A stretch of 35,598 bases of DNA from Euglena gracilis (Eukaryota), in NCBI GenBank assembly GCA_039621445.1, contig CP154954.1, positions 28,237,037-28,272,634 of the forward strand, read 5' to 3'. The notes under the pieces were generated by a model. The model saw only the letters and a list, made by a program, of their open reading frames with translations. It was not told where the DNA came from and did not search any database. The translations under genes and the position numbers were made by a program. Every line of letters begins with the position of its first letter. The stretch's first letter is position 1. Shown in pieces: positions 1-20,418 of this stretch.

Positions 1-1545
1 GGGAACTTTTAATGACATCTGAGGGGGGAGGGGGAGATCTGCCATAACCCCTTCCCTTATCAGGTTTAATACCTCTCTGCTGGCTCCTGCCTTGACCCAA
101 TGGGGGATACTGGCCTGCAGGGCCTTGTAGGGGGGCACCCCTGGGTGTAATGTACCTGGGGATTCCACAGGCCCCATCACAGGGGTCCTTCCCCTGGGCT
201 GCCCCATCACTGGGGGCCCCTCTGGGTGCCCCATCACTGGGGCTGCAGCTGGCCCTGCCATAGGGCTTTCCAAAGACAGGCTTTCCCCCTGTTTTGGAAT
301 GATGGGGGAAGGTCTGTGGTGGGGTGGTACATATAATGCTGGGCTGATTATCTTCTGGGGGGGGCCTGCCTGAGCCAATCTTGGGCCTCCCCCCCAAGGG
401 CTGATGTGGTCTTGATGGTTTTGGCCACCACTTGCCTTCAGGGCCCTTGGGCCTCCAGAGGCACTCAGGCCTGCTTGGCCCCCATTGGCCTTTTCTCCAG
501 GACTTCTCTGTCCATTTGCCTCCATCTGGCTGCCAGTGGCACACAGGCCTGCTTGGCCTCCATTGGCCTTCTTTCCAGGACTTTCTCTTCTCTGTCCTTC
601 TGGGTTCCCAGTATAGGCCACCATGGCCTGTGTTTGGCATTGGCTTGCTGCTCCTGGGAGGTTTGTGTCTGAAATTGCTGGGGGAAAAGTTGGACATACC
701 TTTTCCCAATGGGATCTCTCCAGGCTGGGGTACTGGCTGCCATAGCCTTGCCCCTGGGCCCACTGCCCTCTTGAATAATGGCTGCCAGAGCCTTGATTCT
801 GGGCCCCAGGCCCTGTTGAATGATGGCTGCCATAGCCTTGATTTCGATTTGAATCCTTTGGATTTCTGATCTCCCTTGAGAGGCTGCCATAGCCTTTGCT
901 TCTTCCCCTGGAAGGGGAGGAACTGAGAAAAAGGGGTGGAGTCTGTTGGACCTGTGATGGTAGTCTCCCTGTGTCTCTTCCTGACCACAGTTGTCCATGG
1001 TCCATGGCCATCATTTTGAGTGGGGGAGTCTGAAATCTTTGATTTGCTGGGGGGTGGGGGGGTTGCGATGGCCACGGACTGACGTGCTGCTGCCGCCTCA
1101 TCTCCTTCTGCAGCTGCTGCTGTGACTTCACCTTCCCCAGCTTCAGTTGACTTCTTGGAAGTTCTTTGCAGTTCTTCTTGAAATTCAGAGTTTCTTTGAA
1201 ATTCATTCTTCATGGAAGTCCTTTGTTGATATCTGTGTTTCTGTTCTTTGAATTTCTTGTTCCAGTTGAACTCGAGGCGTTGAATTCTTCCTTCAGGAAG
1301 TTGAAGTTCCGAAGAAAGTTCGGTCCACCAGTTGGTAAAAGTATTGGTTCTCGGGAAGGTAGTACTCCTCGAAAAGCAATTCCACTTGAACTCGTAGCAG
1401 TAAAACTCTTTCTCCTTGAGGTCGAAGGGCAGAATTAGGATCAGCCAACTCCAGCCCGAGGTCTGATGGCACGGACCTCTGGGCTGACGAACAGATGGAG
1501 GAGGAACTGATCACCCCTGTAGCCCCTGCCCATCCGTCTTTCTGG
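1..1545 (-). mobile_element. 5' part of a DIRS-type retrotransposon (ORF1/gag plus start of RT), running off the window's left edge
   Basis: On the minus strand, ~978-1012 reads DGHGPWTTVVR, versus DGHGPWQTVVR at 6182-6215 with mostly synonymous differences. ~1420-1455 reads ELADPNSALR, versus ELADSEFALR at ~5848-5877. 1-~160 reads PYKALQASIPHWVKAGASREVLNLIREG, matching the DIRS RT N-terminus (cf. LYQRLQKSLKWW at ~7111). The boundary near 1545 is approximate. Confidence 0.8.
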
Positions 1546-1692
1546 TCGGTACCCGGAAAATTTTTTTATTCCCCCACTCCCCGCACCAAATTTTTACTTA
1601 GAATGTTGAGCAAAGTAAGCAAAGGGTCATGGGACAGTTGGCCCGACAACAATTTTACACCCGACCCTTTGCTTTGCGTACCCCCCATTAAA

Positions 1693-2048
1693 CTTTTGGT
1701 CCAACTGAAAATCGATACTCAAAATTTCCGTGAACAAGCCAAAAATTTATTCGACACATGGTGTCGAATCCCCCTTCTTTTCCGCAAAGGACTTATACCC
1801 ACCCCCCTGTTGGCTCATGCCAAGAAGCCCATCAAAATTATGACCGCTGACAATAGCCCCACGTGCGGTGGCGACTTGGAATGCATTTTGGACATAGTTC
1901 TTCCCATTATCCTGAAGCACCACACACACACACACACACACCACAATTCCCAAATTTCTGGTACTTGGGCATTCGAGGCGAATACCGCCTGTCAGATTTC
2001 ATATTGGGTTTTCCATTCCTACGGCAACACCGATTGGTGGTGGATTGA
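1693..2048 (+). pseudogene. Decayed retropepsin (LTR-retrotransposon-type aspartic protease)
   Basis: LLVQLKID...AKNLFDTWC (DTG motif altered to DTW at 1753-1761)...PIKIMTADNS. After a frameshift near the (CA)n tract it reads DFILGFPFLRQHRLVVD, the D-x-ILG-x-x-FL...D C-terminal retropepsin motif. Confidence 0.78.
1919..1942. repeat. (CA)n microsatellite inside the protease relic
   Basis: cacacacaca... seen directly; coincides with the frame change in the protease. Confidence 0.9.
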
Positions 2049-2270
2049 CCTTCGCACGGTTTACGCACTACCCCCCGCACACACACCACACCCCAAACTT
2101 GTCCCCCATGACGTCACCCAGAACGTCCCCCTGCATTTTCACACCGTTTTCCACAACCGAAAAAAATGTTTCCTACCCTAGGGGTAAACAGAAAGCTGCC
2201 CCCCTACCCACCGCACGTTTACTGCTTGTTTCCAACGCAGTAGGGGAAGCTAGTATCTTAACCCTGCACG

Positions 2271-4400
2271 TTGCGCTGGGTTCCCAGGCGAAAGCCCAAA
2301 AGGCCGGAAGTAATTACGGTGTCGAGTAGCCGCCCAGCTGCACAACTGTTACGTTTTCCACCAGGTGTGTCAACTTCAGACACCCCTGTACACCCCCCAG
2401 CAGCTACCACAACCGACACCAATTTATGCACTGACACCCACACAAACGCGCACCACGAGCGCCAACCCTCCTACCAATGCGCTCACTGTCGGAGAATTTA
2501 TGCTCACCATGATTTTTATTGTGGATGTCTTGTTGAACCTTACAAAATAATCCAATTGGATCCCGCAACCCGGGAATTTTACCGCCCGGCACTTGGTAGT
2601 GGTACCTTTACACCTAGTAGTGACCTACAGTGACCTACAGTCGCAACCATCGTCAGCTCCCGCTGTTTTTGCAGCGGTTCTGGTTCAGGGCTTGGACGTA
2701 CAAGATCATGTAGATATATTTTTATCTCAACCGCGATAGGGAAATTCCCCCGGACTTTGTCCCCATCAGGCCACGGTTCGAGAAGTAAAGCATTGACGAT
2801 TATGTCAAACGCCGATTCGGCGATACGCTCGATAGAGCGTTACTCGTGCCCTTTTTCCAAGGCGGCAGAGTGAATGATCAAGGCATGGCCCTGCCCCTAC
2901 TGCGCTTCAACCACACGATGGTTTAATATGAATGGAAGCCATGGAAAACTTTCCGATTACGGAAACGACATGTGCCAAAGGCACACCGCCCAAAGCCGCA
3001 ATCGCCTACCGAAATTACGCCATCAGAACGCTCAACTCAGCCGCAACCGGCAACATCAGTTACATCTCAGCCGCAATCGGCAACGCCAAAACCCCGGGGA
3101 ACTCCTGGTCAGTCATCACCAACCACCTTCGGGCGTGGTCGGCGTTACCTGGGATCAAGCCTATCGGCTACGGCAGGACCTTTTGTCCCTAAGGGACCCC
3201 AGCAGAGCCAATCTTCTGTCGCCACCTCTTCTCCCCAGCCCGCTACAGGGGCACCCACTGGCGTCACTGCGCAAGCAGATACTGTGCCTACCGCTATAGC
3301 GGAACAGCCAGCAGCCCCTGCCGCTTCACTAGAAACGGTGGAGGGCAGTGAAGAGGGCGATGGAGAGAGCGGTGAATACTGCATGGAAGGCCTGGAGGAA
3401 ATATGTGCTGATGAACCTCAGCATCTAGCTGTTGCACCAGCCACAATGGGCTCCAGAACACCCCTTGCTGCTGAAGGAGATGTAAGCTCAGAGGCTGAAT
3501 CCCCACCGTCTGAGGCCGAACAGCCAGCGGTACCTCTGGTACCACCCCTCTCCTTACCCGCAGTGCCAACGACACAAATACCGACAGAGCCAGTCGCATC
3601 ACCGACAATAACTACAGGTGTTTTAGGTGGTGTGTTACAGGGTCTGACCGCGGCAATGTCCGCAGTATCAGCAGTGCTGACCCCTCGCGGCTCACCTGCC
3701 GCATCCCCACCAGAGACCCAACGGGTTCCTGCTGCTGATAGCAGCTCAACAGAACAGCCGTACAGGCTGTGGTCACAACTCCAATGGAGTTGAATGTCCC
3801 AGCAGCTAAACCAGCGGCAAAATTGCCGCCAACGGCGGAAGTGCAACCATCTCCTGCCAAACCCGCAGTTTCGGCACCGCCAACGGCGGAAAGACCATAG
3901 CCTCCAGCAGACCCTAAGGAAGAACGGAATTTGATAGATAACCCAACGGTCCATAGCCATGGTACAACGGCATAGGCAGGGTACAACGGGTGATACACCC
4001 ATCGGTACACTTGGTTATTTTTCACATTTCACAACTACACCTAGCAGTTTTTCGCAATTCGCGAAGGTGAATCAAGCACTTCAGTGCAAAGGCATAGCCT
4101 CCCTCTTCGGATTTGCGCATAGCGCTCCCCATGCGCCAATGGCGCTGTCCACACCCCCTGGGCATATCGCGCTTCACGCACATAGTGCGAATCGCGCGCT
4201 ATCGCGCATCGCCGACGTTTGGGTATATGCCCAACCCACCCATGCCCAGCCTGGATCGAGTCCTATGGACGTGTGACTCACAAATACGTTGTTCTGTTTT
4301 GCGGCATGTTCCCCCCCTTCAGGATGTTGAGCAGGTCTCCAAGTACGTCAAGGACACTTGGAATGCTTTTCAGTTTGGTCAAGATGGAATTCCGAAACAT
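2271..4400 (+). pseudogene. Decayed continuation of the polyprotein: Cys/His motif, unknown domain, Pro/Thr/Ala/Glu-rich linker
   Basis: ORF 2271-2633 contains YQCAHCRRIYAHHDFYCGC. Removing the 11-bp tandem duplication AGTGACCTAC(A) at ~2619-2641 puts it in frame with ORF 2972-3793, with three stops between. It continues with frameshifts (ELNVPAAKPAAKLPP..., ORFs 3959-4276 and 4113-4550). Confidence 0.55.
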
Positions 4401-4439
4401 TGGTTTTTTAAAACGGCCGACAAGGGGAATTCCTTTGAT

Positions 4440-4660
4440 TTGACCTTAGAAAATGATGCATTCTCTTCCAACGCGCATTCGTGCTTACCGCGACATTGGT
4501 CGCAACATTCTAACGCTTTTGACAAGTTCTGGAGAGACACCATCCAATAGATGCACCCTCACTGAAACTTATCCCGCTTGTTGTAGATAAGATTTTCCAG
4601 GATCAAGCGCGAGGCGCATTACTCGTGCGTGTGAAACCTGAAGCGGAATGGTTTCAAAAT
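4440..4660 (+). pseudogene. Decayed Dam-like N6-adenine methyltransferase domain of the DIRS-MT type
   Basis: LTLENDAFSSNAHSCLPRHWSQHSNAFDKFWRDTIQ*MHP then a frameshift to LIPLVVDKIFQDQARGALLVRVKPEAEWF. This follows the retroelement MT pattern DxFAS..N..LP.F.S...DAF...W.....(N)PP..LI..VL.KI.......LV.P.W....W and is colinear with 8593-8840. Confidence 0.7.
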
Positions 4661-5159
4661 TGGACTTGTGTACAAAATTCTGCTGAATTCAGGTACTGTC
4701 CTGCACTTTCAATTACAGCGGAAACCTGTTTATGGGTCATACCAACCATAGGGGGGGGGGAAGAACGGTGATACCTATCAGCAGTATGGAGAAAAGCCGT
4801 ATCGGCTCCCACACGGTCGGTATGATCCAACTCACCAACATTCAGGGGTGGTGATTGCGAAACACTGAAAGCATCAAAGAAACAAACGCGAAAAATGATC
4901 ATCACCATCTTCAAAGCTTGGTTGAAGTGTACTGGAACCGCGGTTGGTAGCAAGAAAAGCATCAAAGAGGCTGCTCCAGATCAGGTTTGTATCCTTTTTG
5001 AAGGCGGAATTTTCAACCTACCGAAACGCGTGGCGCATGACATTGAGTTCCCAAAGTTGGACGCCGCACCTCAGGTGGCCAAGGCCCCTTCGGCATTGCG
5101 ACGGCCGTGGGCCGCAGACTGGGAGGAGTCACCTGGAAGGAACCAAGCGAAGGACCACA

Positions 5160-5731
5160 AGCCATAGGACACCCAGTTCACCTGGGGCGAGGTGGAGCCC
5201 CAAGACCCAAAGATTCCAAACGTTCGACTTTTCTGCCCCCCCCCCCTTTGGCCACTGATTGTAAAATGCCCAGTTGTTTACTGACTAAGTCACTGTTTCC
5301 CTTGGCTCTCTGAAGCCCTTTTCCTGTGCTAATTGCTGCGTAATGTTCTTTTAAATTTTTGTGCAAAACAGCGTTTTCACTCCAACGTTCCTGAGCAATT
5401 TTGCTTCATGTGGATGCCCAACCCCCCAAACCTCGGATGCTTTTGTCTGAGGTGACTTCCCTTGTTCAGTTTTTGGGGATGGGTCCGCCCCAGGCTTTCA
5501 GCAGGATAGTAGTTTACTTTACGTCATTGATTATAATAGAGTGGTACGTTTTTAGTTCCAAGGGTTTTAGCCCTCAGAGTTCAGTCAGGGATTCCGCTAT
5601 ATGTTGGAATTTCTTTTCTGAACTTGATTTGAACCTTAATTTTACCACATCCCAGACCACTTCGTTCAGGTGATTTCTAAAAATCTCTTCGATCGGGGCC
5701 TCCGACAACGCGTCCGCGTATATGCACACCT
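5160..5731 (-). pseudogene. Old DIRS pol relic, 3' piece (RT YxDD region, with an internal deletion, to RNase H)
   Basis: One minus frame with 4 stops reads VCIYADAL..IFRNHLNEVVWDVVKLRFK...AWGGPIPKN*TREVTSDKSIRGLGG...QERWSENAVLHKNLKEHYAAIST...KGGGGRK, then QVNWVS after a frameshift. Colinear with VFIYLDDIL..LQNHLKTVVKDLLDSGFK / LHSDSSTHAWGG / HINVKELSAAVST / KGGGRK / QVNWVP of 7680-8480. Confidence 0.85.
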
Positions 5732-5836
5732 GACACCTCGGGCTCCGCACTTTGCCCTTGTGAGGCCATGCCTTGCTCGCCGGCGGTGTTGTTTGGATTG
5801 TTCGTTGCGCTGGGTTAGGAGGTCCCGCTTAGTGCC
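5732..5836 (+). repeat. DIRS left extension (5732-5758) plus left ITR (5759-5836)
   Basis: 5759-5836 is the reverse complement of 11816-11893 with 2 mismatches. 5732-5768 is the reverse complement of 11559-11595. Confidence 0.95.
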
Positions 5837-5866
5837 TTTTTTCGCCGGAGTTGGCTGATTCCGAAT

Positions 5867-6931
5867 TTGCCCTTCGACACCCAGAATAAAGGAACTTCAA
5901 AGACCTCACCAATTGAGAAAAGAAGAAGACAATCAATCCATTCAATTTATCCAGAAAGTCACGCTCGTGCAGAACTTCAAATCAAAAGTTGTAGAATTTT
6001 TCGAAGGAGTTCAATGAAAGATGCAAGTTCAAAGAAGCACAGCGTTGGAAAACTTCAAGAGGGAGCAGCAGCAGCAGCTGGACAACCTGACGGCACGGGT
6101 CAACTGTGGCGAACCGTGGCTGCCCCTTCCCCAAAAGAAATTTCCCCCACAGAAATTTCCAAAACCCAAACCCTCCAAAGTGATGGCCACGGACCCTGGC
6201 AGACAGTGGTCAGAAGACCCCGAAAGGGGCAGAAGCAACAACCAGCAGGCCACTACGGCCATTGGAGCCAGGGCCATTGGGGCCAACATTCTGCCAGTTA
6301 CACCAATACCTTGTTCAAGTTGGGCCATGGCGGCCAAAACAGCAAGCTGGGCCATGGCGGCCAAAACAGCAATGGCCATGGCGGCCGATGGAACAAAGGC
6401 CAGGGTGGCCAACAATACCAAGGCCAGGGTGGCCAATTCCACAAACAGATGCCCAGTGGCAGGGCCAGGACAGGTCAACAACACCCCCCCAGTCATTTCT
6501 TCATCTCAAACCCCATCAGGGGTACAGAGCGGGCCCCCAGTGGCCCCCCAAGATTTTCAATGGGCATGGCGCCCAACATCCAAAAGAAGTCAATGGGGGC
6601 TATCAAAGTTTCAAGAGTGGAGCCAACATCAAGAGGACCAGTGGGGCCAGATTTACCACCAACAACATCAACAATTTCAAGGCCATTGTGGCGATCAATT
6701 ATCAGAAGGGGAAAAACCCCAGAAGCTAACAGGCTGTCCCCCAGCAGGGGGTTTCAATGTACAGTGGCAGCCCCAGGAGGATGCCCCCAAAGGGGCAGTG
6801 GAAGACACAGGGGGCAACCCCCCCTCAACATTCTTTGTTTTGTTTTGTCAGTGCCCATGGCAGGGGCAAACCAAAACAAGGGGGAGACCCAAAAAAGGGC
6901 CCTGTGGTATGTCAATCGGCAACACCAATGA
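5867..6931 (+). CDS. DIRS ORF1 (gag-like) with G/Q/H/N-rich low-complexity region; true start uncertain
   Basis: 354-aa ORF just inside the left ITR. The DGHGPWxTVVR motif is conserved in this frame with the copy at ~1000. Contains GHGGQNSKL and GQGGQ repeats. Confidence 0.7.
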   Translation: MPFDTQNKGTSKTSPIEKRRRQSIHSIYPESHARAELQIKSCRIFRRSSMKDASSKKHSVGKLQEGAAAAAGQPDGTGQLWRTVAAPSPKEISPTEISKTQTLQSDGHGPWQTVVRRPRKGQKQQPAGHYGHWSQGHWGQHSASYTNTLFKLGHGGQNSKLGHGGQNSNGHGGRWNKGQGGQQYQGQGGQFHKQMPSGRARTGQQHPPSHFFISNPIRGTERAPSGPPRFSMGMAPNIQKKSMGAIKVSRVEPTSRGPVGPDLPPTTSTISRPLWRSIIRRGKTPEANRLSPSRGFQCTVAAPGGCPQRGSGRHRGQPPLNILCFVLSVPMAGANQNKGETQKRALWYVNRQHQ

Positions 6932-7083
6932 CAAACTGGAGGATCAGAGAGCCTGTGAGCAGAGCATGCACACCCCCCCAGCCACTTTTAGAGAATGCTC
7001 AATCCCCAGGGGCACCAGGGGTGCAATGTCCAACACCCCCCACCCAGCACCCAGAAAATCATCTATTTGGGAAAATACATTCC

Positions 7084-8160
7084 ATGGAGGAAAAATGGGG
7101 AGACACCCCCCTGTACCAGAGACTTCAGAAAAGTCTGAAATGGTGGACAAAAAATGCCCCCCCCAGCAACATGTCAATTGATAAAAAAGTAATTCAACCC
7201 CCCTGGGTGAATCCCCCAAAATTATCCACCCACCCAAAACCCAGGGCCAACCTGGACCTGAACCAGGCAGAAAAAATTCTGCTGGATTACGAAAAAACTG
7301 GCTCAGTGAAACGAGTTTGGGATTCAGCACCCCAGCATTTGATCCCCTGGTTTTTAATTTCAAAACCAGAAGGGGAACAACCAAATGGAGAATGATCAGC
7401 GACTGCAGAGAAATAAATCAGCAGTTTCAAGTAAAACCCTTCAAGTTGGATCATATCCAACACATTTTTTCCTGTTTTGGAAAAAGGCCACTGGGCAGCA
7501 AAAATAGACCTAAAGGATGCCTATTTTCATATTCCGGTAAGTCCAGGTCTAAGGCCATTTTTAAGGCATCAGGTAGGGGGGCAGACCTGGGAATTTCAAA
7601 CAGGCTGCTTTGGGCTAAATGTAATGCCCCAAATTTCGTGTCAGTCACGAAAACATTCGAAAAACTGTGGAGAAAAAGGGGCATCCAGGTGTTTATTTAC
7701 CTGGACGACATTTTGCTGGTGGCCCCCACCCAAAACAATTTACAAAATCACCTCAAAACAGTTGTCAAAGATTTGCTGGATTCTGGGTTCAAAATCAATG
7801 TGAAAAAGTCCACCCTCCAGCCCACCCAAGTGGTAACCCACCTTGGTTTTCAACTGAACTTCCAGGATGGAAAACTACAGGTGCCCCCCCAGAAAGTCAA
7901 AACCATAAAAAAGGAGCTGGGAAAAATTGTGAAAAAAGATTACATGTCAAAAAGGCAATTGGCTGCCATATTGGGCCAAATAAGATGCAACCTAATGGCC
8001 CTGCTGTTTTTAAGGGCTTTTACAGACACCATGGCAAATTTTTTGGTGGCAAAAAGCACAGCCCCTTGGGACTCAAAACACCCCATTTCCCAGGAAATCA
8101 AAGCCCAATTAAGGGAAATAAAAATTCTGCTGGACACCTTGGGGGGCAGACCCTTCCCCA
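7084..8160 (+). pseudogene. DIRS reverse transcriptase (frameshifted)
   Basis: Stitched from three frames: IPWFLISKP / KWRMISDCREIN / KIDLKDAYFHIPV...GCFGLNVMP / GIQVFIYLDDILL...GFKINVKKS...HLGF. Confidence 0.95.
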
Positions 8161-8560
8161 AAATGCAACCAGAGTGTTGCACTCAGACAGCAGCACCCAT
8201 GCTTGGGGGGGGCTAGACATCCACACAGGAGAAATTGTGCAGGAATTTTGGAGAAAAGACTCCATTTTGCACATCAATGTAAAGGAGCTCAGTGCAGCAG
8301 TCAGCACTGTGAAAAGTTTGAGCAAACCTGGGGAAACCGTTTCCTTGTCAGTGGACAACCAGGTAATTTACTTTTACCTAACAAAAGGTGGGGGCAGAAA
8401 GGACCCCTTCAACAAAATGCTGACACCATTTTTCAAGTGGTGCATGGAGCACCAAGTGCACCTCCAAGTCAACTGGGTGCCTTCAAAAGAATGCCTGGCA
8501 GACCCCATCAGCAGATGGGAAATGGACAGGGGGGATTATTCTTTAGACCCCCAACTTTTC
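8160..8560 (+). pseudogene. DIRS RNase H domain
   Basis: LHSDSSTHAWGG, HINVKELSAA, VDNQV and WVPSKECLADPISR carry the D/E/D/D catalytic pattern. Confidence 0.93.
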
Positions 8561-9036
8561 AATGGCTCAAACAACAGTTCAAAAATTTCATAAGTCTGGA
8601 AACAGATTTGTTTGCCTCCCCAGGCAACAAAAAAATGCCCAATTTTGTGGCCAGGTGGCTCCACTGGGATGCCACAGCAGTAAATGCATTACAATGTCCA
8701 CTGGACAACATGGGGGATCTTTATGCAACCCCCCCCTGGTCAATAATTCAACAATTTCTACCCAGGTTAAAAATGTTTCTCCAGACCAAAGTTTTGATGG
8801 TCACCCTCTACTTGGATTCTGCCACGTGGTGGCCGCAATTAATAAAAATGAAAGTTCCAGGGACCCCCTGCCTGAAAATCACCCCCTACAGGGGCAAGTT
8901 CACCAACTGCAGAGGGGAGCAAATGCCACCCCCCAGGTGGCCCCTGGTTTGCATGATTTGCTCCGGCAAATTTTGGAGGGGAAACAAATTCAGGTTGAGA
9001 CCATTAACGATTTCCTGGGGAGAAACCCCAGCTTAA
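8560..9036 (+). pseudogene. DIRS Dam-like adenine methyltransferase domain (C-terminus of pol)
   Basis: ETDLFASPGNKKMPNF...VNALQCP...DLYATPPWSII...VLMVTLYLDSATWWPQL. The NPPW motif appears as TPPW. Confidence 0.9.
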
Positions 9037-9070
9037 AACGTTATCAGAGTGCTTTTGCACTTCTGTGGGT

Positions 9071-9368
9071 TGAGAGCGCGGGCCAGATTTGAGATTTATT
9101 TTGGTAAGAGATGCCAGCAGAAATTAGGCATTACCTCACAGAGATTTTGGGGAATTACATTTTTCACAGGCAAGCTGGCAAACAGTGCACAAGTTTGCGT
9201 GGGACTCTGAACTGGATTCAAAGTATCAAGTCTTGTCTTCTGGGGTGCTGTGTAGGGAAGTTTGGGAAGAAGACCCCTGAAGGCTGAAAAGTTGGAATTG
9301 GCCAGAAGTCTGATGTGGTGAAATTATCTGGACACACTGGACCATCCCCCAACTTGCACAAACTTGTA
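9071..9368 (+). repeat. 5' LTR
   Basis: Direct repeat of 10447-10744, 293/298 identical by manual comparison. Confidence 0.95.
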
Positions 9369-10435
9369 TGAGATTTGCAGTGCAGAAAAGCCCCGTACAA
9401 ACGTACCTGTGGAGCCGGGGGACACTCAGAAGTGAAATGTCATGGAAGTGGCGGGCCAGCTCAGCAGCAGAAGGGGGACAAGGCAGAGGAAGGCACCAGT
9501 TGGCACACAGTGAGATGCTGTGTTGGGCCACCATGATCAACTCTCCAGATCAAGCTAGCAGCAGGCGATCCTGGAGTTGGTGCTGCTGTGGATCTTGGTT
9601 GGAGCCTGGGCTGAAGGACAGACGAATGTCAATCACAGCCCGCCATCATCATCAATAATCTCAATCTCCAAAATGTCTGTCAAGATGTCATTTCAGGGTC
9701 AAGTTCAAGTCAAGATGTCAAGTTCAATTTAAAGATCCCAAGGAATCTGTGGTGGAAGAAAGTTGTCATGTCAAGATTTCAATTTCCCAAGGTCAATCTG
9801 TGAAGGAGTTCTGTCATCATTTCCAAGATTCCAAGTTCCCAAGGTCAATCCGTGGAGGATCGAAGGTGTGATGTCCAAGATTTCAAGTTCCCAAGTTCAA
9901 GATGTCAAGTTTCAATGTCATTGGTCAAGGTCCCCCTGGAGATTTCGGCGCGAGGAGCCTGACCTCGTAAAAAACAGTGATCAGGGTTGTGCAACAGCCC
10001 TACAAATGCACATCTGGTGGACATCTTCAAGTTCGTCAACCTGTTGCTGCTGTGATGGCTGTGGTGTGTGCCGCCTCCCCGTTCGGTGCTGGGCCGCTTC
10101 AAGGGGGCTCTGCTCCGGTTTGGCTCGGCGGGGGTCGCCGAAGCCCCGGCTGGACCCCATGGGGGGTCATGTTGTACGGGGTAGGTCGTACGACATGGCT
10201 CTCTAAGGTGGAAAGGCTGGGGTGGAGGTAGGCGGCCCCACATGGTATTCATCTGTGGATATGGACATGTTTACAATTATCTGTGGATTCGAAGATTTTA
10301 CAATTTAAATTCGAGAACCGCCATTCGTCACTTTCCATGTCGCTGCTGCGTGTGTGTGTGTTGTGTGTTGAATTTTTATCTCCGGCCCGCTAATGTTTTT
10401 ACTTCCGTTTGGACAATTGCTTGGCAATTGTTTTT

Positions 10436-10446
10436 GGGAAGGGGGG
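10436..10446 (+). promoter_or_regulatory. Polypurine tract (PPT)
   Basis: GGGAAGGGGGG immediately before the TG of the 3' LTR, preceded by a T run. Confidence 0.9.
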
Positions 10447-10744
10447 TGAGAGCGCGGGCCAGATTTGAGATTTATTTTGGTAAGAGATGCCAGCAGAAAT
10501 TAGGCATTGCCTCACAGAGATTTTGGGGAATTACATTTTTCACAGGCAAGCTGGCAAACAGTGTACAAGTTTGCGTGGGACTCTGAACTGGATTCAAAGT
10601 ATCAATTCTTGTCTTCTGGGGTGCTGTGTAGGGAAGTTTGGGAAGAAGACCCCTGAAGGCTGAAAAGTTGGAATTGGCCAGAAGTCTGATGTGGTGAAAT
10701 TATCTGGACACACTGGACCATCCCCCAACTTGCACCAACTTGCA
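10447..10744 (+). repeat. 3' LTR
   Basis: TGAGAGCGCG...AACTTGCA, a direct repeat of 9071-9368. Confidence 0.95.
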
Positions 10745-11558
10745 GGGTGATTTTGGAACACATGGGGGTGCCCCCCCCCCGAAGCCACCACAGACCAAGT
10801 GGCTGACGCTTTAATTCAATTATTCCAATTTTCCAAGGCCCAAGCCCGTAATGCCTACAGTGCTATGCTTTTGATTCCTGGGTTTGGTGGGCTGACATTC
10901 CACACTCTGTTAATCCCCTACCAGAGGCTATGGAACCAAAACCTGGAGAAGTATGGGGCATTTTGGGACCCCCTCCCAATCCTCCTGGTGCTAGCAAAGG
11001 CGCCCATGCCCACTGATATTTGTACATTGCGTACACAACTGATTTTTTGCTCACGAATCCTCTGTTTATACCGATCCTCAGACTTATCGCAAGTCAAACG
11101 AACCACCAGTGTGTTGGGTAGGGCACCCTACATCAAGATTAAGCGTAAAGGACAGAAATTCCATAAGTGGGAAAGGGTTGTGTCCATTCCGCAATGTCCC
11201 CAAATAAGCCCCTTTCATTTAATGATGAGTTATGTGGCTTCCACACGTTTATTTGTCAGACCTGGGGGCCCCCTCCAGATTTCATTAAAACCCCCCTTCA
11301 GGGCCATGAGTGCTGACACCATTGCTTCCATCACAAAAGACTTTTTGGCCAAACATGGGGTACCCCCCCAGGTGTGGGGGGCCCACTCCACCAGAGGGGC
11401 AGGGGTTGGTTTACTCAAAAAATAGGGCCTTTCTGCCCAAGAAGTTTTTGAAATTGGTCAGTGGAGGGGGGTGGAGGCTTTTACAGCCCACTATCAACGA
11501 CTTGGTGCCCAAGGTGCCCTGGAAAATGCCCTGGCCCCCCTAATTTCAGTGCACAATC

Positions 11559-11665
11559 TGGCCTCACAAGGGCAAAGTGCGGAGCCCGAGGTGTCTCGAA
11601 CTCCCTCGAGGAAAACCGACAAGGGAGCAAGGGACACCGAGGGCGAAGCACAAAGACCTTGTGAG
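11559..11665 (+). repeat. DIRS internal complementary region (ICR)
   Basis: 11559-11595 is complementary to the left end 5732-5768. 11595-11665 is complementary, with a few mismatches, to the right end 11888-11958. Confidence 0.95.
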
Positions 11666-11815
11666 CCCGACCCCCCCACCCGTAAAAGAAAATTTGTGTT
11701 CAAAAGCCCTCGGTCAGAGAGTGGGGGCCGGGGCGGAGAGGGGGGGGACACCCCCCAGGGGCAAGAAGTCACGTCGCCCAGTCGGAGCAGCATCGTCAGC
11801 CAAGTCCGGCGAGGC

Positions 11816-11958
11816 GGCACTAAGCGGGACCTCCTAACCCAGCGCAACGAGCAATCCAAACAGCACCGCCGGCGAGCAAGGCATGGCCTCACATGGTCTT
11901 TGTGCTTCGCCCTCGGTGTCCATTCCTCCCTTGTCGGTTTTCCTCGAGGGAGTACGAG
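11816..11958 (+). repeat. DIRS right ITR (11816-11893) plus right extension (11894-11958)
   Basis: Inverted match to 5759-5836; the extension matches the ICR. Confidence 0.95.
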
Positions 11959-12470
11959 TGTGCCCGGCTGTTTTGCTTGTTCCCTTTACCCAAATAATTT
12001 TTGACATCACGAGCAGTCCAAAGCACCCCTCCCTGCAACTCCGAGGTCTCCCCCCCAACCTGATGTGCCAGCAAAGGTATGACGGCTCGGTGAAATGAAG
12101 GTGGACCCCGCCTGGCGGGCTGGCGACGACCGGGCGCGGCTGCTGAGCTCTGATCTTTGGAAGGAAAAGCAGTCTTACTGCCGCGGGTGGGCAAGGAGAT
12201 TTTCCCCCCCAAACCCACTGATAAAAAACTGTGCAGTGAAGCCGATGGCGTCGGAAATTGTTGGCCAATGTTTTTCCTGCACATTCCTACATTCCTGTGG
12301 CTCATTTCCTTCACAAAGCCGATTTCCCTTGAATTACAGGGGAACCAACCGCCCCTGGGGTCTGTGGAACCCATTTTTGCACAAAGTCGGCGGGCAGGAA
12401 CATTTTGCCACGTTTGCACACCCCAGGATTCCAAAATGATGTCGATGCAGAACATAAAACCAAAAGTTCC
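11959..12470 (-). pseudogene. Old DIRS pol relic, 5' piece (RT), contiguous with 5160-5731 before the insertion
   Basis: Minus frames read MCRKNIGQQF (cf. DCREINQQF), IPLLAHQVGGETSELQ (cf. RPFLRHQVGGQTWEFQ) and EGCFGLLVMSKI (cf. TGCFGLNVMPQI). Joining across the DIRS restores GTQVCIYAD (cf. GIQVFIYLDD). Confidence 0.85.
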
Positions 12471-12629
12471 AAATCGCCACAAGAGAGCGCTCAGATGTCA
12501 GCAACAAACTCACCCAAACGCTTTCGGAACTGTGCCACGCGCTCGGGGCTATCGGAGTGGCTGAGTTTGGCTTTGATGTCGGGGTGGTTCGGAGTTGGTT
12601 GAGGGATTGGTCTTTGACGGTGGTCAGCT

Positions 12630-15600
12630 TCACACGTGAAGCCCCAGACGATGAAGAAATTCCCATCCCTCAGTTATCAAACCGCTGGATCTCAAGAATT
12701 CTTGGCACTCAATGAAAATATACAGGAAAATGGGCAAAGAAATCTGGCATTCTTCGGTGAGAACAGGTCGACATCAGAGAAAAAAACTGATTCTTGTCAT
12801 CCTTGGACCATCGCCCATCCACCCAAATCATAAAAGTGTGTTTTTTGGACTTTTCAATTTTGGACCCCGTTTAAGTCCCAGTCCGGCCCTTGGTCGGCCC
12901 TTTGGCCGAAAGGGGGGCGGTCCTTAAGAAAATAAAAAAAAAACTTTCCTGTCCCTTAAGGACCGCCCTGCCGGGAACCCCACCAAAAAGATGAAAATCT
13001 TTCCAAAACCAACTCTAAATAATAAAAAAAACCCTGCAAATTGACCACCGGCTCTGCATCCAGGTTCGCAAAGCGCTTCATGTGGGCAATGACTTCACAT
13101 GCCCTCCGCCAGTCACCAGTGCGGTGGCAAATCTCCCAGGCCAGGTCAAAGGTGGCCCCCGACGGCTCAAGTCCGGAGTTCACGAACTCTTCCCACACCT
13201 GCCACCCGTCAAACAACCACCACCATTCCATCGAATTGTCCAAAAAAAACGCCGACTACATCGCTGGCTGCACTCAACAATGCCAACAATTCATTGCCAT
13301 TGTTGCAAACGAAACAGCAAGCCAATCTTTCCAAACACAGATCCGGCCACAACACTCAAAAAAAAGAATAGGAAACGATGGTGTTTTGGGGGGAGAACTG
13401 TCCCAAAAATAACCCGTAGGGATATCATTTGGGGGGGGGGTGATTTAATCTGCCATGGGTTTCTGTAAAAATATGAATACCGTACACTCAGTCCAAAAGG
13501 TTTTAGGTTAAACTTTTTGAAAGAATGAGACCAACTAACAGCAACTATCTTTGAAATTTTTCAAAAGCGATATGCTTGGACGGTGCAGCTACACATTACA
13601 GGTGACAATGCAGCAACAAAATACGCCGTATCAACGGCCATAAAATGCACCAAAATCAGCACAGCGTGCAACATTGGCAGAAAACGCAAAACAAACGTCT
13701 CCATGGTCAAATTCTTTCTTCCAGGGAATCTTGATGGAGCGCAACAGGGTTGTTTAGAACTTGTTTGGAGGTCTGAAATACAAAGTCGCAGTTGAACATC
13801 AACAAATCACATCAAAGAAAATGCCATGCATTTGCATACCTGCAAAGCCTTGGTGTACTGCCCTGACGTCAGGCACACTGCCATAAGCCCATCGTATGTT
13901 CCTGCACTTGCCACTACTCCTTCTGCAAAAACGACAATACAATGAGAAGACCAACCAGACATCCAACAGATATTTCCGCTGGTGAACCAGGGAATTTCTT
14001 AAGGACCCCCCGGGGGGGTCCTGCCGGCCAGCTGGAAAAAGTGCTAGTTGGAAAAAGGGTATGGCTGGACCCCCCCTCCAGGGGGTGGGGGTCCAAGGAG
14101 GTGGTTCGAGCCCGCTGGGACCCAAAAAACAAGGAAAACAGTTCAAATCCAGCCGGGATGCATTTTTTCAGCTAAATTTTTGAGGTGAAAAAAAGTCCCA
14201 AATATGGCCATTTTTGCCATTTTTGACCCATTTGGTCCAGCCGGGCTTCGCCAGGCTGCGAAAACTTTATTACCACTCGACCTCCTGGGGGGGGGGGTCC
14301 GCAGCCCAGCTGGGAGGTGCTGGCTGGGAAAAAAGGTGCTAGCTAGCTGGACCCCCCCGGGGGGGTAGGGGGGGTCCAGCTTAAGCAAATCCCTGTGGTG
14401 AACACATAAGAAAACAAAAAAATCCTGAACAGAAACATCTTTTATCAGACATCAAGCAGACACATCTGTTAGAACCATAACTGCACACATTAACAACCCC
14501 CATTTCGTCAGACCAGATCCAAAAACAAGCACCTCTGTGAAAAAAATGCTTTTTTTTAATCACTTCAGGCAATTTACAAAACTGGTGGAAAAAAAATAAG
14601 GTGAACACAATGTTTTCTTGGTGAGCACATCAATCCTTGAAATGGCCTAAGTCGACATGTTTCCCCAAAAGTAAAAAAATTTGTTTGACCATGTTCCTTG
14701 GATTTCGCATTAAGTGTACTGGGATGAAAATTTTTTGTTTTGAGACCGCCCTTTTTGCATTCAGCAACAGAAGAATGTGGGCCGTGCTGGAAAGATGAAT
14801 AATTCTCTGTTGGACGGGGATTTGCCACATATCCGCAATTTTCCACAATTTCCTCAATTTCCTGGAAATTTCCAACTTTCCACATTTCCCAACGTTGGGA
14901 ACCCCGTCTTTTCAGAATTTCTCAGAACTTTTCAGAATCGAAACAGAACACCATTCATACAAGCGACCTTTATCCATCTCCTGTCTCAACAGGAACGCTG
15001 CTTCCCAATGATCTGGAACGAGGCTGATTGACTTGATCGCAACATTGGAGGCAGGCTGTGGCAACTGTATACCAGATGCATAAAAAAAGGTAGAAGCAAG
15101 ATCCTTGATGTACTGGTCGCCCATGGGGGGCCAAATAAATGAATGAATGACTGGCTTCAAGGAGGCAAATGGTTGGGGTTGCGAAAGTTAGGAGTGTCGT
15201 TGAGGACAGGGTTAGGGTTAGGGGTTGGCTGATGGGCAATGGTCCAAGAATGCCGGAAATAAATTTTAATTTAATTAAAATTGCTTTTCCCTGAAGTCGA
15301 TCCAATTTTGCCAAAATATGGCCATTTTTTGGTCGATTTTTCCTGTGCATTTTTCATTGGATGTGCAGGGAAGGGAAGTTTTTTTTTCTGTGAAGGACCG
15401 CCCTGGGGGATAGGGATAGGGTTGGGGTTCGGATTTATGCAAGGCCAAACTCTGGCCTAATTCTGGCAAAAACCAGGCCTAATACAGGTTGCCCCCCAAA
15501 AAACTGGACTGGATATTCTCATTAAAAGGGTTTTTATTCAGACCAGCGAACGATTCCATTTGAAGTGATTGTTTGTCTGAAGTCGCCTAACACCCATAAG

Positions 15601-17302
15601 AAAAAAGTTTTTTTCCTTTCCAGCACCAGCCCTTGCAGCCAACCAGATTGCCCTCTCTTTTTTCGAAATTTTTGGCCCATTTAAAGATTGTCCTCGGCTC
15701 AGCTTGATTCCAAATCAGTTACATTCCTAGGTGCATCAATTTTGCATTGATTGTACTGCCATGTGTCATTTTGGATGCAAGGCTCTGAGAAAAAGGGAAA
15801 GAATCTGTGTCAGAGCAGAAAAACATGTGTAACAGGTCCCATTAACTTAAAAATCTGTGGACGAGTCATTTTCTCAAAGTGTGGGTTTTGCAACTGACCT
15901 GCTGTGAAGAGAGCAGGGATGCCCGACCATACTGTGGCTGCTCGTGACATTCCACCCACAATGTCAATAATGGTATTGGTCAAGGTCACTTGTGTCTCTA
16001 GATGTGCAGCATAACCCGAAGATTTTGGGTCAACCTGTATTACCTGTATTGCCTCCTTTTGGTCCGACCCCAACCGTCGCAATGTGCGTTTTTTACTTTT
16101 TGATTTTGACCCCGTTCAAGCCCCAGTTCGGCCCTTGGCCGTCCCAAGGGCACAAGGGCGGTTCTTGAGAGGGGGTCCTTAAGAGAGGAAAAAACTTCCC
16201 GTCCCTTTTCGACCGCCCTGCCGATCCCCAGACAATGACCAGGGTTGCTGGGCTCTTTGGATGAAAAACAATTCGGGGTCATGATGGAGCACAATGAGGT
16301 CGTTGGACATTGCCAGAGCTCAGTGGGAGAAAAACATACCTTTCAGACGTACAACGAGGGTTCGAGCAGGCATTCTTTTTTAAAAGAGTCTTAAAAAACC
16401 TAAAAAACTGAAAAAATTTGCCAAAATGCTTTTAAAAACCTGAAAACCTGAAAACCCTAAAAAATTCGTTCTGCAAAGTTTTCGATGTGTGCGCAAAAAT
16501 GTGCGCAAAAAGAAATCTCGGGGGAAACTGCAGGGGAAAAGTTGATTTCTGGCATTGCTGGAACATGGTCTATCCACCCAAAAACTCAAAGCAATGGGTT
16601 TTTCAACTTTTTGACGTTCGACCTTGACCGACGTTGGTTCCATGCCCAGATGGCTCTTTCAATCTTTGACTGCCCTTGGAAAATAGACGCCCTAATTAAA
16701 TTAAATAACCCTAACATTAAAAAGTCTTAAAAAATATTAAAATTTTTGAAAATTTTCACCTGAAAAAATAATGATAACAATGCCTAGGTTCAACTCGAGA
16801 AAATTTAGGAAAATAAAACAGAACAACAAAGAAATTAATTAATTAATTAATTAATCAATAATTTAAAAGTTAGAAATTAAAAAAGTTAGATTCAGGCATT
16901 ATTTTGTGAAGGCGCCTGAAAAACCCTTAAAACCGTTCAAACCTCAAAATTCTTTTTGCCAACCCGCCTTAAAAACCCTTAAAAAAACTTAAAAAATTCG
17001 TCCTATAAAATTTTTCGAATTTCAAACAAAAACTTGGAACATCTCGGCAAAAACAAGCCATCTCTGGGGGAAAAAATGCTTTCTGGCATCAGTGTATATC
17101 CACTCAAAACTCAAAAAATAAGTTTTAAAACTTTTGATCTTCAACCTAGACGGACGTTGGTTCGATGCCCAGGTGGCTCTTTGACTGCCCGCCTTAAAAG
17201 TTCTTGAACTTTTCAAAGTGCCTTAAAAAACATTAAAAAACCATAAAAATTGCATTAAAACCCTGAAAAAAAATTGAGAATTTTCGCCTTAAAAAAAAAC
17301 TG

Positions 17303-17366
<64 letters not shown>

Positions 17367-19075
17367 GTAGAATTACACATTATTATTCTACCATTGATAC
17401 ACATAATATTATATTCATAAATCAAATTTATAAATAAAAATGCAAATAAAAAAATATGCATAATTATAAATATACAAAATTCAAATAAATAAGCACACAA
17501 TAAATCAGAAAATATGATATATATGTTGTACAAAATAAATAAGTAATAAAGCAAAATGTGTTATTTTTCGGGCCAGGTGCAGAGGCCCTGGAGCTTGCAT
17601 AGGGTGATGGGCTTTATTTAAAAGGTCCAGTGATACTTTAACTCCCGATCATATTTGAGATATGTTTTGAAAAAAAAATCAGAATCCTCACCTGAAAATG
17701 GCTGGAAAACGGTTCATTTGAAACATGCCAAAACTGGTGCAGATACCAACTTAAAATGGCCATAATTCGGGCAAGGTGTTCGGGCAAGGCATGGAGCTAC
17801 AGGAAAATAAAAATGTGGTTGGATGGGGCGTTCCAAAGACTCAGTTTTCGGTCAACAGATATTCACTTCGATTCTTTCGAAATCTTCTTTTGCCTTGGGG
17901 GATTGTTGTTTTGCATATGTGCAAAACGTGGAAAAGGTTGTATGTGTTGTTGTTCACGTGGAAACTGAAGCAATCTTTGCTGGGGAAAGGACTGAAAAAC
18001 ATCCACCATTGAATTCACTGTTTCCCGAATTCATTGCCGCGGTTGACCCGTTTTTGCCAAAACTTTTGCTGAAATGTATTTGAAAAAACCATTAAAAATA
18101 CATTCTGGCAGAATCACCTCTGACCAAACAAACATGAAGCTGCAAAATCTCGGCAAATACAAACCAACTCCAGGAAAACATTTTTTCTTCGCATTCTTGG
18201 AACATTGTCTGTCCATCTAAAGCTCGAAAAGATGTGTTATTCTGTTTGACTGTGGACAAAATGATGGAAAACAAAACAGGCAGCAAGCGACTCACTCCTT
18301 TTTTATCTTGAAACAATGAGGAAAACTTTTGTTCTTCGAGGAAATGACGGAAATATTCGACTACTGGCAAACATTTGGCACAATGGGCAGTCCTTGGACA
18401 ACAAAAAAAAATCTGTGTCAGCACATTTAAGGCAAAATCTACAGAAACAATGGCCAAACAAATGGCATATTTGGGCAGGAAGTGATTTCTGGTATCCTTG
18501 GACCATCGCCCATCCACTCAAAAGTTCAAAAATGCATTTTCCAGCTGTTTGATTTTCGACCCGGACCGGCTTTTGGCCGGCCCTCAGTCCTTGGTGGGAA
18601 AAAAACCTATCCCTTGAGCGCTGCCCTGGGCGGGAAAAGGGCCTGCTTTTTCAAACTGAATTTTTGAGGCTTTTTGAGGGATTTGGAAAAAGGTTTTAAA
18701 GTTTTTCTGCGCGTAAGAAAACAGAAAAGCACAGCAAGCCAGAGAAAAGAAAGATAACTGGGTTTTGTCCACCCCACCTCGACGACGACATTTTAGCCAA
18801 TGCCGGGTCAAAACCCTCCACACTCATTGGCATCAGAGGGATTCTGTGTGGTCGGAAACGGCGCACTTGTCTGGCGCTGGCAGCCTGGAGGAAGGAGATT
18901 GGAAGCAGCATCTGAAAAATAATTTCAGTGCTGCTCAAGCCATGCTCAATGCAGACATTAACATGGTATTCCTAGCGTGTAGTTTGCTACAGATCAGGGG
19001 CCCAAGCTTACCAGGTAGGGCTTGCAGGGGGTGGGATGGTACGTGGTGGTGTATCAAAACCCAACCTCTGGGTAT
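12630..19075 (-). CDS. Multi-exon host gene encoding a pentatricopeptide-repeat (PPR) protein; 5' end unresolved (probably 19.8-21.4 kb)
   Basis: Phase-consistent GT-AG exon chain: 19075-19012, 18911-18867, 18363-18296, 17796-17692, 16034-15899, 15784-15723, 15112-14968, 13922-13840, 13198-13033 and 12700-12630 (stop; weakest exon). The C-terminal part has ~35-aa PPR periodicity: SGIQLPQPASNVAIKSISLVPDHWEAAFLLRQEMDK / EGVVASAGTYDGLMAVCLTSGQYTKALQVWEEFVN / SGLEPSGATFDLAWEICHRTGDWRRACEVIAHMKR. Confidence 0.8.
12705..12970 (+). mobile_element. Family-A hAT-type MITE, 5'-degenerate copy
   Basis: Similar to 22541-22836; ends in CTTAAGGACCGCCCTG. Confidence 0.8.
13033..13198 (-). CDS. PPR gene exon (VWEEFVNSGLEPSGATF...VVNLQ)
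   Basis: CAG acceptor and a PPR motif. The donor position is less certain. Confidence 0.85.
13840..13922 (-). CDS. PPR gene exon (GVVASAGTYDGLMAVCLTSGQYTKALQ)
   Basis: tttttgcag acceptor and gtatgc donor; phases match both neighbouring exons. Confidence 0.88.
13988..14395. mobile_element. hAT-type MITE (408 bp) in a PPR intron
   Basis: TIRs CAGGGAATTTCTTAAG and CTTAAGCAAATCCCTG; perfect 8-bp TSD TGGTGAAC (13980-13987 and 14396-14403). Confidence 0.92.
14968..15112 (-). CDS. PPR gene exon (...SGIQLPQPASNVAIKSISLVPDHWEAAFLLRQEMDK)
   Basis: PPR-like helix pair and a phase-1 GT donor fitting the next exon. Several in-frame acceptors are possible. Confidence 0.75.
15228..15405 (-). mobile_element. 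Family-A MITE, 5' half
   Basis: The reverse complement begins CAGGGCGGTCCTT and matches 22541-22700. Flanked by TTAGGG-like repeats. Confidence 0.8.
16085..16220 (+). mobile_element. Family-A MITE, 3' half
   Basis: Matches 12835-12970; ends GACCGCCCTG. Confidence 0.75.
16367..16786 (+). mobile_element. AT-rich hAT-type MITE (family B), copy 1
   Basis: Ends CAGGCATT...AATGCCTA; flanks GGTTCGAG and GGTTCAAC (6/8 TSD match). Confidence 0.7.
16893..17369 (+). mobile_element. Family-B MITE, copy 2
   Basis: Starts CAGGCATT and is colinear with 16367-16786 (shared GACGTTGGTTC.ATGCCCAG.TGGCTCTTT). Confidence 0.7.
17303..17365. repeat. (AAT)~21 microsatellite
   Basis: Perfect trinucleotide run seen directly. 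Confidence 0.97.
17692..17796 (-). CDS. PPR gene exon (LHALPEHLARIMAILSWYLHQFWHVSNEPFSSHFQ)
   Basis: tttttattttcctgtag acceptor, gtgagg donor, 105 nt open, phase 0-0. Confidence 0.78.
18381..18628 (+). mobile_element. Family-A MITE, diverged copy
   Basis: GGGCAGTCCTT...GATTTCTGGTATCCTTGGACCATCGCCCATCCAC...CTGCCCTG. Confidence 0.72.
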
Positions 19076-19242
19076 CTGGCAGTGTCAGTTCAAAAGTGTT
19101 GCTGCATCCGTCCACTCCACCGGTGGCCATTGGAATTTCAGCTCATTTGCAGATGCGAGAGGGGCCCAAAACAAAATTCTTATGCCACAAGGATGCCAAA
19201 CATCGTTCCATCCCCAATGAACAGAGGAGGTGAAATGATATA

Positions 19243-19811: not shown

Positions 19812-20418
19812 GAGAATGCACCCCTGATGGGTCCCGACCAGGTGTAGGTTCACAAAGGCCACCTTTGACAGGACCATGACACCTTCAAAACAGCAGGTTC
19901 CGAATTATCTCGATATGGTCCCAAAGACACACCCGAACCCTTTCCAGAGGTGCATAAAACAAAATGGCCACCAAAATATGGTACCCTGAGGACCCCATTG
20001 TTTCCTGAAACGCCCTTTAGGGTTGTCATTTTGGGGGGTGAGCAAATCCTCCTGCCCTCTTGCCCAACGGACTTAAATACTCATGAAGATGCATTGTTTG
20101 ACGCACGTAGGATAAAACAGAGCATGATGAATACCTTAGATTGAAAGACAAAAACACAACGGGTTCTGGTGAGGGAAAAGGTGTCAGATGAGTGCAGATA
20201 ACCCTATGGGGCAACTGGGAGTGGAAAAGCAGTGGAGCAACCACCTGCAGGGGAGGGCAGCATCATACCTGTCTGGTGAGTGTGTCAGCCAATTGTCTGC
20301 AAAAGGACATTTAGAAAAAATCTGTGATGAAAGACAGGTGGGGAAAACCTCGTTCAAAGATGTGCCAGAATCAAGGCATACTACCAGCTGGGGATAAAGA
20401 TAAACCTCCGGGTATTCT

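Follow-up and report, generated by a model that had tools for sequence, protein, structure and literature searches.

A dead fragment of a probable chromovirus-like LTR retrotransposon whose relatives carry a Dam-like domain ahead of the reverse transcriptase

In a stretch of 35,598 nucleotides of contig CP154954.1 (the window, meaning that stretch at its full length), a decayed polyprotein at about 1550-5150 appears to link a retropepsin to a Dam-like adenine methyltransferase domain with no reverse transcriptase (RT) between them, which raises the question of what kind of element, if it was a single one, left these remains. The sequence-only reading of this locus had proposed either a long terminal repeat (LTR)-type relic with an adenine methylase between protease and RT, or a protease-bearing tyrosine recombinase element from which pol had been deleted. 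The analysis described here points to the former. Positions 1453-5000 are very probably what is left, dead and rearranged, of one copy of a Ty3/gypsy (Metaviridae) LTR retrotransposon of chromovirus-like type and high copy number, of which the plus strand keeps a truncated and frameshifted pol, from its N-terminus to just before the RT only. Judged by its sequence, the relic adds a divergent new member to the DAM-LTR elements, a kind described only recently.

Intact relatives carry most of this argument. A phmmer search with the open frame at 4098-4550 against 1.84 billion representatives (E <= 1e-3) returned eight matches, five of which are true relatives (P0002, P0003, P0004, P0007 and P0008). 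The other three (P0005, P0006 and P0009) were dropped as spurious, being repetitive proteins of bacterial type with matches spread over 5-9 stretches. Within one open frame, P0008 (748 residues) contains a DTG protease, a CxxC-x10-CxC motif, the same methylase-like domain and the beginning of an RT of gypsy type, and searches from P0008 and P0010 led to the full-length proteins P0010 (1705 residues), P0011 (1662), P0012 (1677) and P0013 (1769). All four present the same order in a single open reading frame (ORF): protease, Ser/Thr/Pro linker, CxxC-x10-CxC motif, Dam-like domain, RT, RNase H, integrase and chromodomain. This is exactly the arrangement that the LTR-type alternative had envisaged. 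Pfam recognizes RVT_1, RT_RNaseH (both RNase H models), Integrase_H2C2, rve, SH3_Tf2-1 and Chromo in each of them, the last of these (PF00385) at E 1e-9 to 2e-8 and in a part of the protein that is absent from the window. The best solved relative of the full-length proteins is Ty3 Gag-Pol (7q5b, E 9e-79), and the pol order protease, RT, RNase H, integrase is found in all four, the window keeping the protease end only. Mean pairwise identity is 54% in the protease, 53% in the Cys motif and 51% in the Dam-like domain, against 12-31% in the linkers. The family proteins stem from metagenome or run assemblies; a search of the ESM Atlas with P0010 residues 1-660 gave no usable match, and the family alignment found no relative among viral contigs.

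When a hidden Markov model (HMM) built from the four intact relatives was applied to the six-frame translation of the window (1263 fragments), and P0010 and P0011 were compared with the window by tblastn, the matching parts proved collinear and on one strand (plus). Nine family motifs have matches, each occurring exactly once in the 71,192 residues of the six-frame translation and at its collinear place; the patterns WIHPP, KFFRC and YxDD are absent from that translation. The most upstream landmark, GTDLWAD (1468-1488, plus strand), is likewise unique and corresponds to the start of the pol ORF, as P0010 and P0013 begin with MGTD[PL]WAD; the start codon itself is lost in the relic. A three-frame reading of 1400-5300 shows all of the pieces named in the sequence-only reading, and its retropepsin, Cys motif and Dam-like domain are indeed present on the plus strand, in the order given and well beyond chance by tblastn, family HMM and motif matches.

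The limits of these domains required revision. The family HMM places the protease at 1606-2045 on the plus strand, in two matches (1606-1983, E 1.5e-27; 1947-2045, E 0.0046), such that the domain reported at 1693-2048 is upheld and its start moves upstream to about 1606; tblastn places it at 1627-1911 and 1947-2063, with 38-43% identity and linked E values of 2e-23 and 1e-17. Retropepsins (peptidase family A2) are recognized by a D-T/S-G triplet followed, about 80 residues later, by two hydrophobic residues and a glycine. This hallmark is present in all four relatives, as DTG with I[LI]GY.FL 77-81 residues further on. In the window, the active-site triplet reads DTW (LFDTWCR, 1747-1767), ILGFPFL follows at 2001-2021, and the reading frame shifts within a (CA)n run at about 1914-1949. 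Downstream of the protease, the end of the linker and the conserved Cys motif occupy 2328-2561 on the plus strand (family HMM E 2e-8; tblastn placement 2472-2552). The motif itself, CAHCRRIYAHHDFYCGC at 2478-2528, had been read as CxxC-x8-9-CxC; its spacing is x10, as in all four intact relatives, where this region retains its 53% identity between adjoining linkers of 12-29%.

The Dam-like methyltransferase-fold domain is represented by its N-terminal two thirds at 4320-4666 on the plus strand, and was detected by a Dam-domain HMM, tblastn and phmmer. The Dam-domain HMM (A1) matches the window at 65.5 bits (E 4e-19) and 32.3 bits (E 7e-9), the full family HMM at 4320-4544 (E 2e-13) and 4556-4666 (E 3e-7), and tblastn at 4290-4559 and 4556-4657, with 34-47% identity and E values of 5e-14 and 1e-15. 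Landmarks include DAFSSNAH (4455-4478), HWSQHSNAF (4494-4520) and VVDKIF (4580-4597), whilst the region of motif IV (about 4545-4562), interrupted by stops and a frameshift, reads ..MHPH... The methyltransferase reported at 4440-4660 is therefore a real domain with a different extent: it begins near 4320, and its C-terminal part is read, as described below, as an inverted piece encoded by the opposite (minus) strand.

Between the Cys motif and the Dam-like domain lies a spacer of about 1.76 kb (2562-4319, plus strand), where the relatives have 51-73 residues only. It contains a second Cys motif, C..C-x22-C..H (2892-2984), a Pro/Thr/Ala-rich open frame of 288 residues (2927-3793) and in-frame stops at 2631-2633 and 2871-2873; searched on both strands against Pfam, it gives no family match and no recognizable domain. 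Contigs of three DNA sequencing runs were aligned to the window at a likeness of at least 80% for depth and breakpoints. In run X1 the summed contig depth, which is not a copy number, is 4.5e4-7e5 in the bins spanning 1522-5001 and 148-563 in those spanning 5002-5697. Depth over the spacer is high in its own right (4.5e4-2.5e5), with contigs 83-88% alike tiled across 2470-3800; the spacer is accordingly a feature of the family's lineage in the source genome. Depth differs between the relic and its 3' flank by three to four orders of magnitude, a contrast that marks the family of the relic as very abundant in that genome.

The same data define the borders of the relic. Its 5' side is cut at 1440/1453 by a DIRS-like element, and loose contig ends at 1453 indicate that other copies of the family extend further upstream. 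Its 3' border lies near 5000, about 730 bp short of the next DIRS terminus at 5732, and was not cut by DIRS sequence; the earlier view that DIRS elements had truncated both ends is thus correct for the 5' end only. The intervening DNA (5002-5731) is of low copy, with the X1 depth of 148-563 and locus-specific contigs that, over 5002-5697, show 0 differences from the window at a depth of 64-69. In addition to the truncated 5' side, the damage to the relic comprises frameshifts, stops, the (CA)n run within the protease and an inverted end.

An order without precedent in canonical elements might arise if chance had brought together pieces of two unrelated relics, a protease of gypsy type and a methylase from a DIRS element. 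DIRS copies do flank the relic on both sides and Pfam sees neither domain in the pieces of the window, as such a juxtaposition would have it. Against this, both domains and the intervening Cys motif stand in one ORF, in the same order, in four intact proteins, the co-occurrence that two unrelated relics would lack; depth is uniformly high throughout 1522-5001, which behaves as a single repeat unit; and the family HMM barely recognizes the methylase-like domain of the window's own DIRS element (E 0.076). Chance juxtaposition would moreover need four assembly chimeras, which is unlikely across four contigs from separate records, and it is accordingly regarded as very improbable.

The last part of the relic bears on the second proposal, that of a protease-bearing tyrosine recombinase (DIRS/Ngaro-type) element with pol deleted. 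On the minus strand at 4663-4980 lies a segment that may encode the last part of the Dam-like domain together with the linker leading to the RT. It carries the motifs FRVCFFDA (4893-4870) and VSAVIESA (4725-4702), each unique in the window and separated by 56 residues, compared with 44-59 in the relatives. Family HMM positions 576-646 match this strand, and contigs from other copies diverge from the window at 4670 (19 in X1, agreement 0.95). The last ~330 bp of the relic are consequently read as an inversion. The segment at 4860-5110, earlier likened to the N-terminal domain of a tyrosine recombinase, would then be the antisense of an inverted piece of the polyprotein, and the recombinase-like signal disappears with it. 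The recombinase proposal can point to a Dam-like domain of the DIRS kind, whose closest relative found outside the family sits in a DIRS-like element (L001, see below). The four full-length relatives, however, carry Integrase_H2C2, rve and Chromo, and Pfam detects no tyrosine recombinase in any of them; nor do they show the combination of a recombinase, inverted or split repeats and absence of integrase that marks DIRS and other tyrosine recombinase elements. This explanation is thus hardly credible, and an integrase-bearing, chromovirus-like LTR element is the preferred source of the relic.

Whether the domain that interrupts this pol is a Dam-type methylase is a separate question. PF05869 (Dam) is the sole non-retroelement Pfam family matched by the family proteins, always over profile positions ~20-107, and it appears in seven of the eight proteins, at E 3.5e-6, 4.2e-6, 0.0018, 0.0042, 0.0057, 0.006 and 0.071, with P0004 giving no match. 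The Dam HMM of the family also reaches, at E 2e-8, the Dam domain of the DIRS-like locus on metagenome contig L001 (6793-9055), which has the order RT, RNase H, Dam, recombinase and reads MHPPL at motif IV. The description of the domain as DIRS-type is therefore apt insofar as it is related to a DIRS Dam, and fails for the window's own DIRS element, to which, at the E of 0.076 given above, it is not close. A similar division applies to the profile searches that had been recommended, which support the domains through the family HMM on the window and subthreshold PF05869 matches in the relatives, with nothing from Pfam on the window's pieces. An AlphaFold model of the P0010 domain (pLDDT 81) was used for an exhaustive structural search, which retrieved the cap-specific adenosine methyltransferase CAPAM (Z 9.5), KsgA (8.7), T4 Dam (7.8), M.TaqI (7.4) and EcoDam (7.1), with KsgA/Erm/DIMT1 adenine methylases at Z 8-9; nearly all of the 50 structural matches listed are class I methyltransferases. 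The domain is therefore predicted to adopt a class I methyltransferase fold, and the subthreshold PF05869 matches, the link to a DIRS Dam and the predicted fold together are consistent with a PF05869-type domain within an LTR-type pol. Searches of sequences in the PDB with the Dam alignment gave only a chance match to arylphorin (E 0.6), and with P0007 nothing.

The motifs of the domain invite more caution. Motif IV of N6-adenine methyltransferases has the form (D/N/S)PP(Y/F/W). Among seven aligned family domains, 15 residues are invariant, and none contains this motif in full: five read HPP[A/S/P] or HPMF and two (P0007 and P0002) NPP[I/L], the HPMF form being the only one in which an aromatic residue follows the triplet. 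Because most members read HPP, rather than NPP and an aromatic, catalytic activity is doubtful.

Several observations weigh against this account as a whole. The window lacks the family's LTRs, gag, RT, RNase H and integrase, no sign of the last three being found by the family HMM in the six-frame fragments, and the linkage of the relic to such an element is drawn from relatives 34-47% identical to it. No match of the window's own ORF pieces reaches the Pfam threshold, no credible family emerging from the 10 + 1 + 10 pieces of 1420-5673 on both strands, so that it is the intact relatives that give the domains their names. Comparison of 1550-5150 with phages by blastn and a search of the whole window against Rfam were equally devoid of matches. 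For the protease, Pfam yields a single weak match (PF12382, E 0.043), the AlphaFold model is unusable (pLDDT 39), phmmer against the PDB found one chance match only, and a word search among longer proteins, with the protease ORF as query, was without result. In every family protein PF05869 falls below its gathering score of 28.1 bits, the best values being 27.2 and 27.0; only one of the five AlphaFold models of the Dam-like domain is confident, the others having pLDDT 37-50; and the best Foldseek match, CAPAM, has E 2.8e-3, with none at E <= 1e-3. The case for the inversion is weak, consisting of the HMM match at E 0.05 over the 1263 fragments and the two motif matches, with tblastn of P0011 residues 549-615 against the segment at E 0.64. 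The functional part of the account, finally, is one that we infer, and a preprint by Fernandez-Moreno et al. reports, in its available parts, that DIRS and DAM-LTR domains expressed in Escherichia coli added no N6-methyladenine (6mA) (10.64898/2026.05.21.726589).

With regard to origin and function, the Dam-like domain may have descended from a DIRS-type (PF05869-like) domain captured by an LTR element, and the L001 lineage, which shares the His variant of motif IV with the LTR family, is a possible donor. Made as part of pol, the domain would enter the particle with Gag-Pol, where the protease might free or trim it at the poorly conserved linkers, or where it might stay attached ahead of the RT, and it could act there on the element's own reverse-transcription products. 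A role in binding nucleic acid or S-adenosylmethionine, without efficient adenine methylation, is considered somewhat more probable than that of an active N6-adenine methylase, a leaning that follows from the degenerate motif and from the negative E. coli assays of other element-borne Dam domains. The competing view, which is the model of the preprint for DAM-LTRs, holds that the domain is an active methylase marking the complementary DNA or new insertions of the element for permissive chromatin. In its favour, the domain is as conserved as the protease, with its 15 invariant residues, its predicted fold lies nearest to N6-adenine methyltransferases, NPP is kept in P0007 and P0002, and, according to the available text of the preprint, DAM-LTRs of three protists are enriched in 6mA (10.64898/2026.05.21.726589). 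However, motif IV is altered in five of the seven domains, the aromatic after the triplet surviving only in HPMF, the same text describes no activity shown for any eukaryotic element-borne Dam, and an animal host, if that is what the source is, would lack the AMT1/6mA system that the model needs (10.64898/2026.05.21.726589). An active methylase is accordingly a minority possibility, and a binding role is favoured.

How this relic relates to elements already described depends on a small body of work. Dam-like domains have long been known in DIRS elements (PMC3266345, PMC6338049), and were known in no other retroelements until the preprint of May 2026, which, in its available parts, presents "DAM-LTR" as the first Dam in non-DIRS LTR elements, detected by hmmsearch at E <= 1e-5, in five lineages (Chlorophyta, Ochrophyta, Ichthyosporea, Pyropia and Euglena) and absent from Metazoa and Streptophyta, and which ties these elements to host 6mA chromatin (bioRxiv 10.64898/2026.05.21.726589). 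Searched for other reports of Dam in LTR elements outside DIRS, the literature yielded this preprint only. A paper on Kuafuorterviruses (PMC11673190), in which, in the part seen, a methylase appears only in a figure key for DIRS, was set aside as not relevant.

The relic could simply be one more dead copy from one of the five published lineages, with a host such as Euglena gracilis or a green alga. Chromodomain-bearing DAM-LTRs are reported in Chlorophyta and Euglena, and DIRS elements mixed with LTR elements in E. gracilis (10.64898/2026.05.21.726589, available parts). In the same direction, the third-nearest ESM Atlas cluster for the RT of the window's DIRS is mostly Euglenozoa (score 0.95, 166 shared features), the window has a GC content of 52%, the run contigs are very fragmented (mean 49-110 bases) and the family proteins all come from metagenome or run assemblies. 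On the other side, two observations hint at an animal host: Chordata predominate in the Atlas cluster nearest to that RT (0.96, 181 shared features), and the window's DIRS is DIRS1-like with inverted terminal repeats, a type that passages of Piednoel et al. (2011) tie mainly to unikonts (PMC3266345). The PF05869 E values of the family, 3.5e-6 to 0.07 per protein, mostly miss the preprint's cut-off of 1e-5, and five of the seven family Dam domains, as well as the remnant in the window, are without the Asn-Pro-Pro reported in almost all of its DAMs. Membership of a published lineage is therefore a serious candidate of rather less than even probability. It is unlikely, though only a little more so, that a chromovirus captured a DIRS-type Dam for a sixth time, independently of the others, in an animal host without AMT1/6mA, and that the family was then amplified to thousands of copies. 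If true, this would contradict both the reported absence of DAM-LTRs from Metazoa and the proposed link to host 6mA, and the HPP variant, common to a DIRS lineage, would point to a conserved role other than methylation in reverse transcription or integration; the domain would then be a good case for asking what use a retroelement has for a methylase fold that does not methylate. To the few protist and algal LTR elements of the preprint, the chromovirus-like family would add a further divergent lineage, characterized by a fixed place of the domain between protease and RT and behind the Cys motif, a degenerate catalytic motif and a very high number of copies in a large genome.

The two DIRS elements bordering the relic lie outside it. 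To the left, at 1-1440 on the minus strand, is the 5' part of a DIRS-like element, whose gag-like ORF resembles that of the right-hand DIRS at 5819-6931 (18 of 36 residues identical around DGHGPW.TVVR, BLASTP E 6e-6) and at whose end, 1440, contigs from other copies break off (95 loose ends in X1). To the right, at 5732-11920 on the plus strand, is a DIRS1-like element with gag-like, RT, RNase H, methylase-like and recombinase parts, bounded by inverted terminal repeats (5732-5858 and 11920-11796, 86% identical); its RVT_1 match has E 2e-12, its methylase-like domain at 8122-9036 matches PF05869 at E 0.015, and X1 contains 538 loose ends at 5732. As contigs in the three DNA runs join 1440 straight to 5732, bringing DIRS termini head to head without the intervening 4.3 kb, head-to-head DIRS pairs exist elsewhere in the genome. 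A direct repeat of 300 bp (9067-9366 and 10443-10742, 98% identical) lies between the methylase-like and recombinase parts of the right DIRS, brackets about 1.1 kb and suggests a duplication or nested insertion. The observed/expected CpG ratio is 0.0-0.3 in the DIRS coding regions (1-1100 and 6300-9000), with zero CpG in 1-800 despite 57-60% GC, compared with 0.8 in the older-looking relic (1500-5200) and 0.66-0.75 in neighbouring DNA (12000-13400). The RNA run X21 covers the left terminal repeat of the right DIRS (5698-5871) on both strands, at mean depths of 9.5 and 15.3, and the relic next to not at all; 97 of the 102 RNA reads placed lie only partly on the window, and no inference was drawn from them.

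Elsewhere in the window, a C-rich 35-bp minisatellite of ~93 copies (29091-32323, GC ~75%) and degenerate CCCTAA-like arrays (26007-27337) together suggest a subtelomeric or otherwise repeat-rich setting. A repeat of ~120 bp occurs in three copies of mixed orientation and 80-83% identity (15284-15405, 22541-22659 and 23695-23808), and Pfam found nothing in two plus-strand frames of 12001-27001.

Placed beside known systems, the family is closest in its backbone to the chromoviruses, as represented by Ty3 Gag-Pol (7q5b), with which it has in common RT, RNase H, integrase, a Tf2-type SH3 domain and a C-terminal chromodomain. In ordinary chromoviruses the protease runs more or less directly on to the RT, whereas the family inserts ~480-600 residues (linker, Cys motif and Dam-like domain) between the two, and the lineage of the window carries a further spacer of ~580 residues. 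With the phage and bacterial Dam proteins of PF05869, the domain shares a small size (~160 residues) and a weak, consistent profile similarity over positions ~20-107; it differs in its subthreshold scores, in the replacement of the catalytic Asn and aromatic in most members and in being embedded in a retroelement polyprotein. Goodwin and Poulter reportedly described DIRS1-like retrotransposons and their methyltransferase domain in 2001. The domain is of the same kind in these elements, as the match of the family HMM to the L001 Dam, also MHPPL, indicates; in DIRS, however, it follows RNase H and is accompanied by a tyrosine recombinase and inverted repeats, without protease or integrase, whereas that of the family precedes the RT. 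The DAM-LTRs, as far as the available text of the preprint describes them, share with the family a Ty3/gypsy-type pol with a DIRS-type, PF05869-like Dam, in some cases a chromodomain, and a supposed capture from DIRS. The family has its domain between protease and RT, preceded by a conserved CxxC-x10-CxC, a position that may set it apart. Almost all DAMs of the preprint have an Asn-Pro-Pro triplet flanked by aromatics (10.64898/2026.05.21.726589), in contrast to the HPP of most family members, of which two in seven have NPP, and to the MHPH of the window. The PF05869 scores of the family lie below the Pfam threshold and mostly below the preprint's cut-off, such that DAM-LTR-like elements may be more numerous than has been counted.

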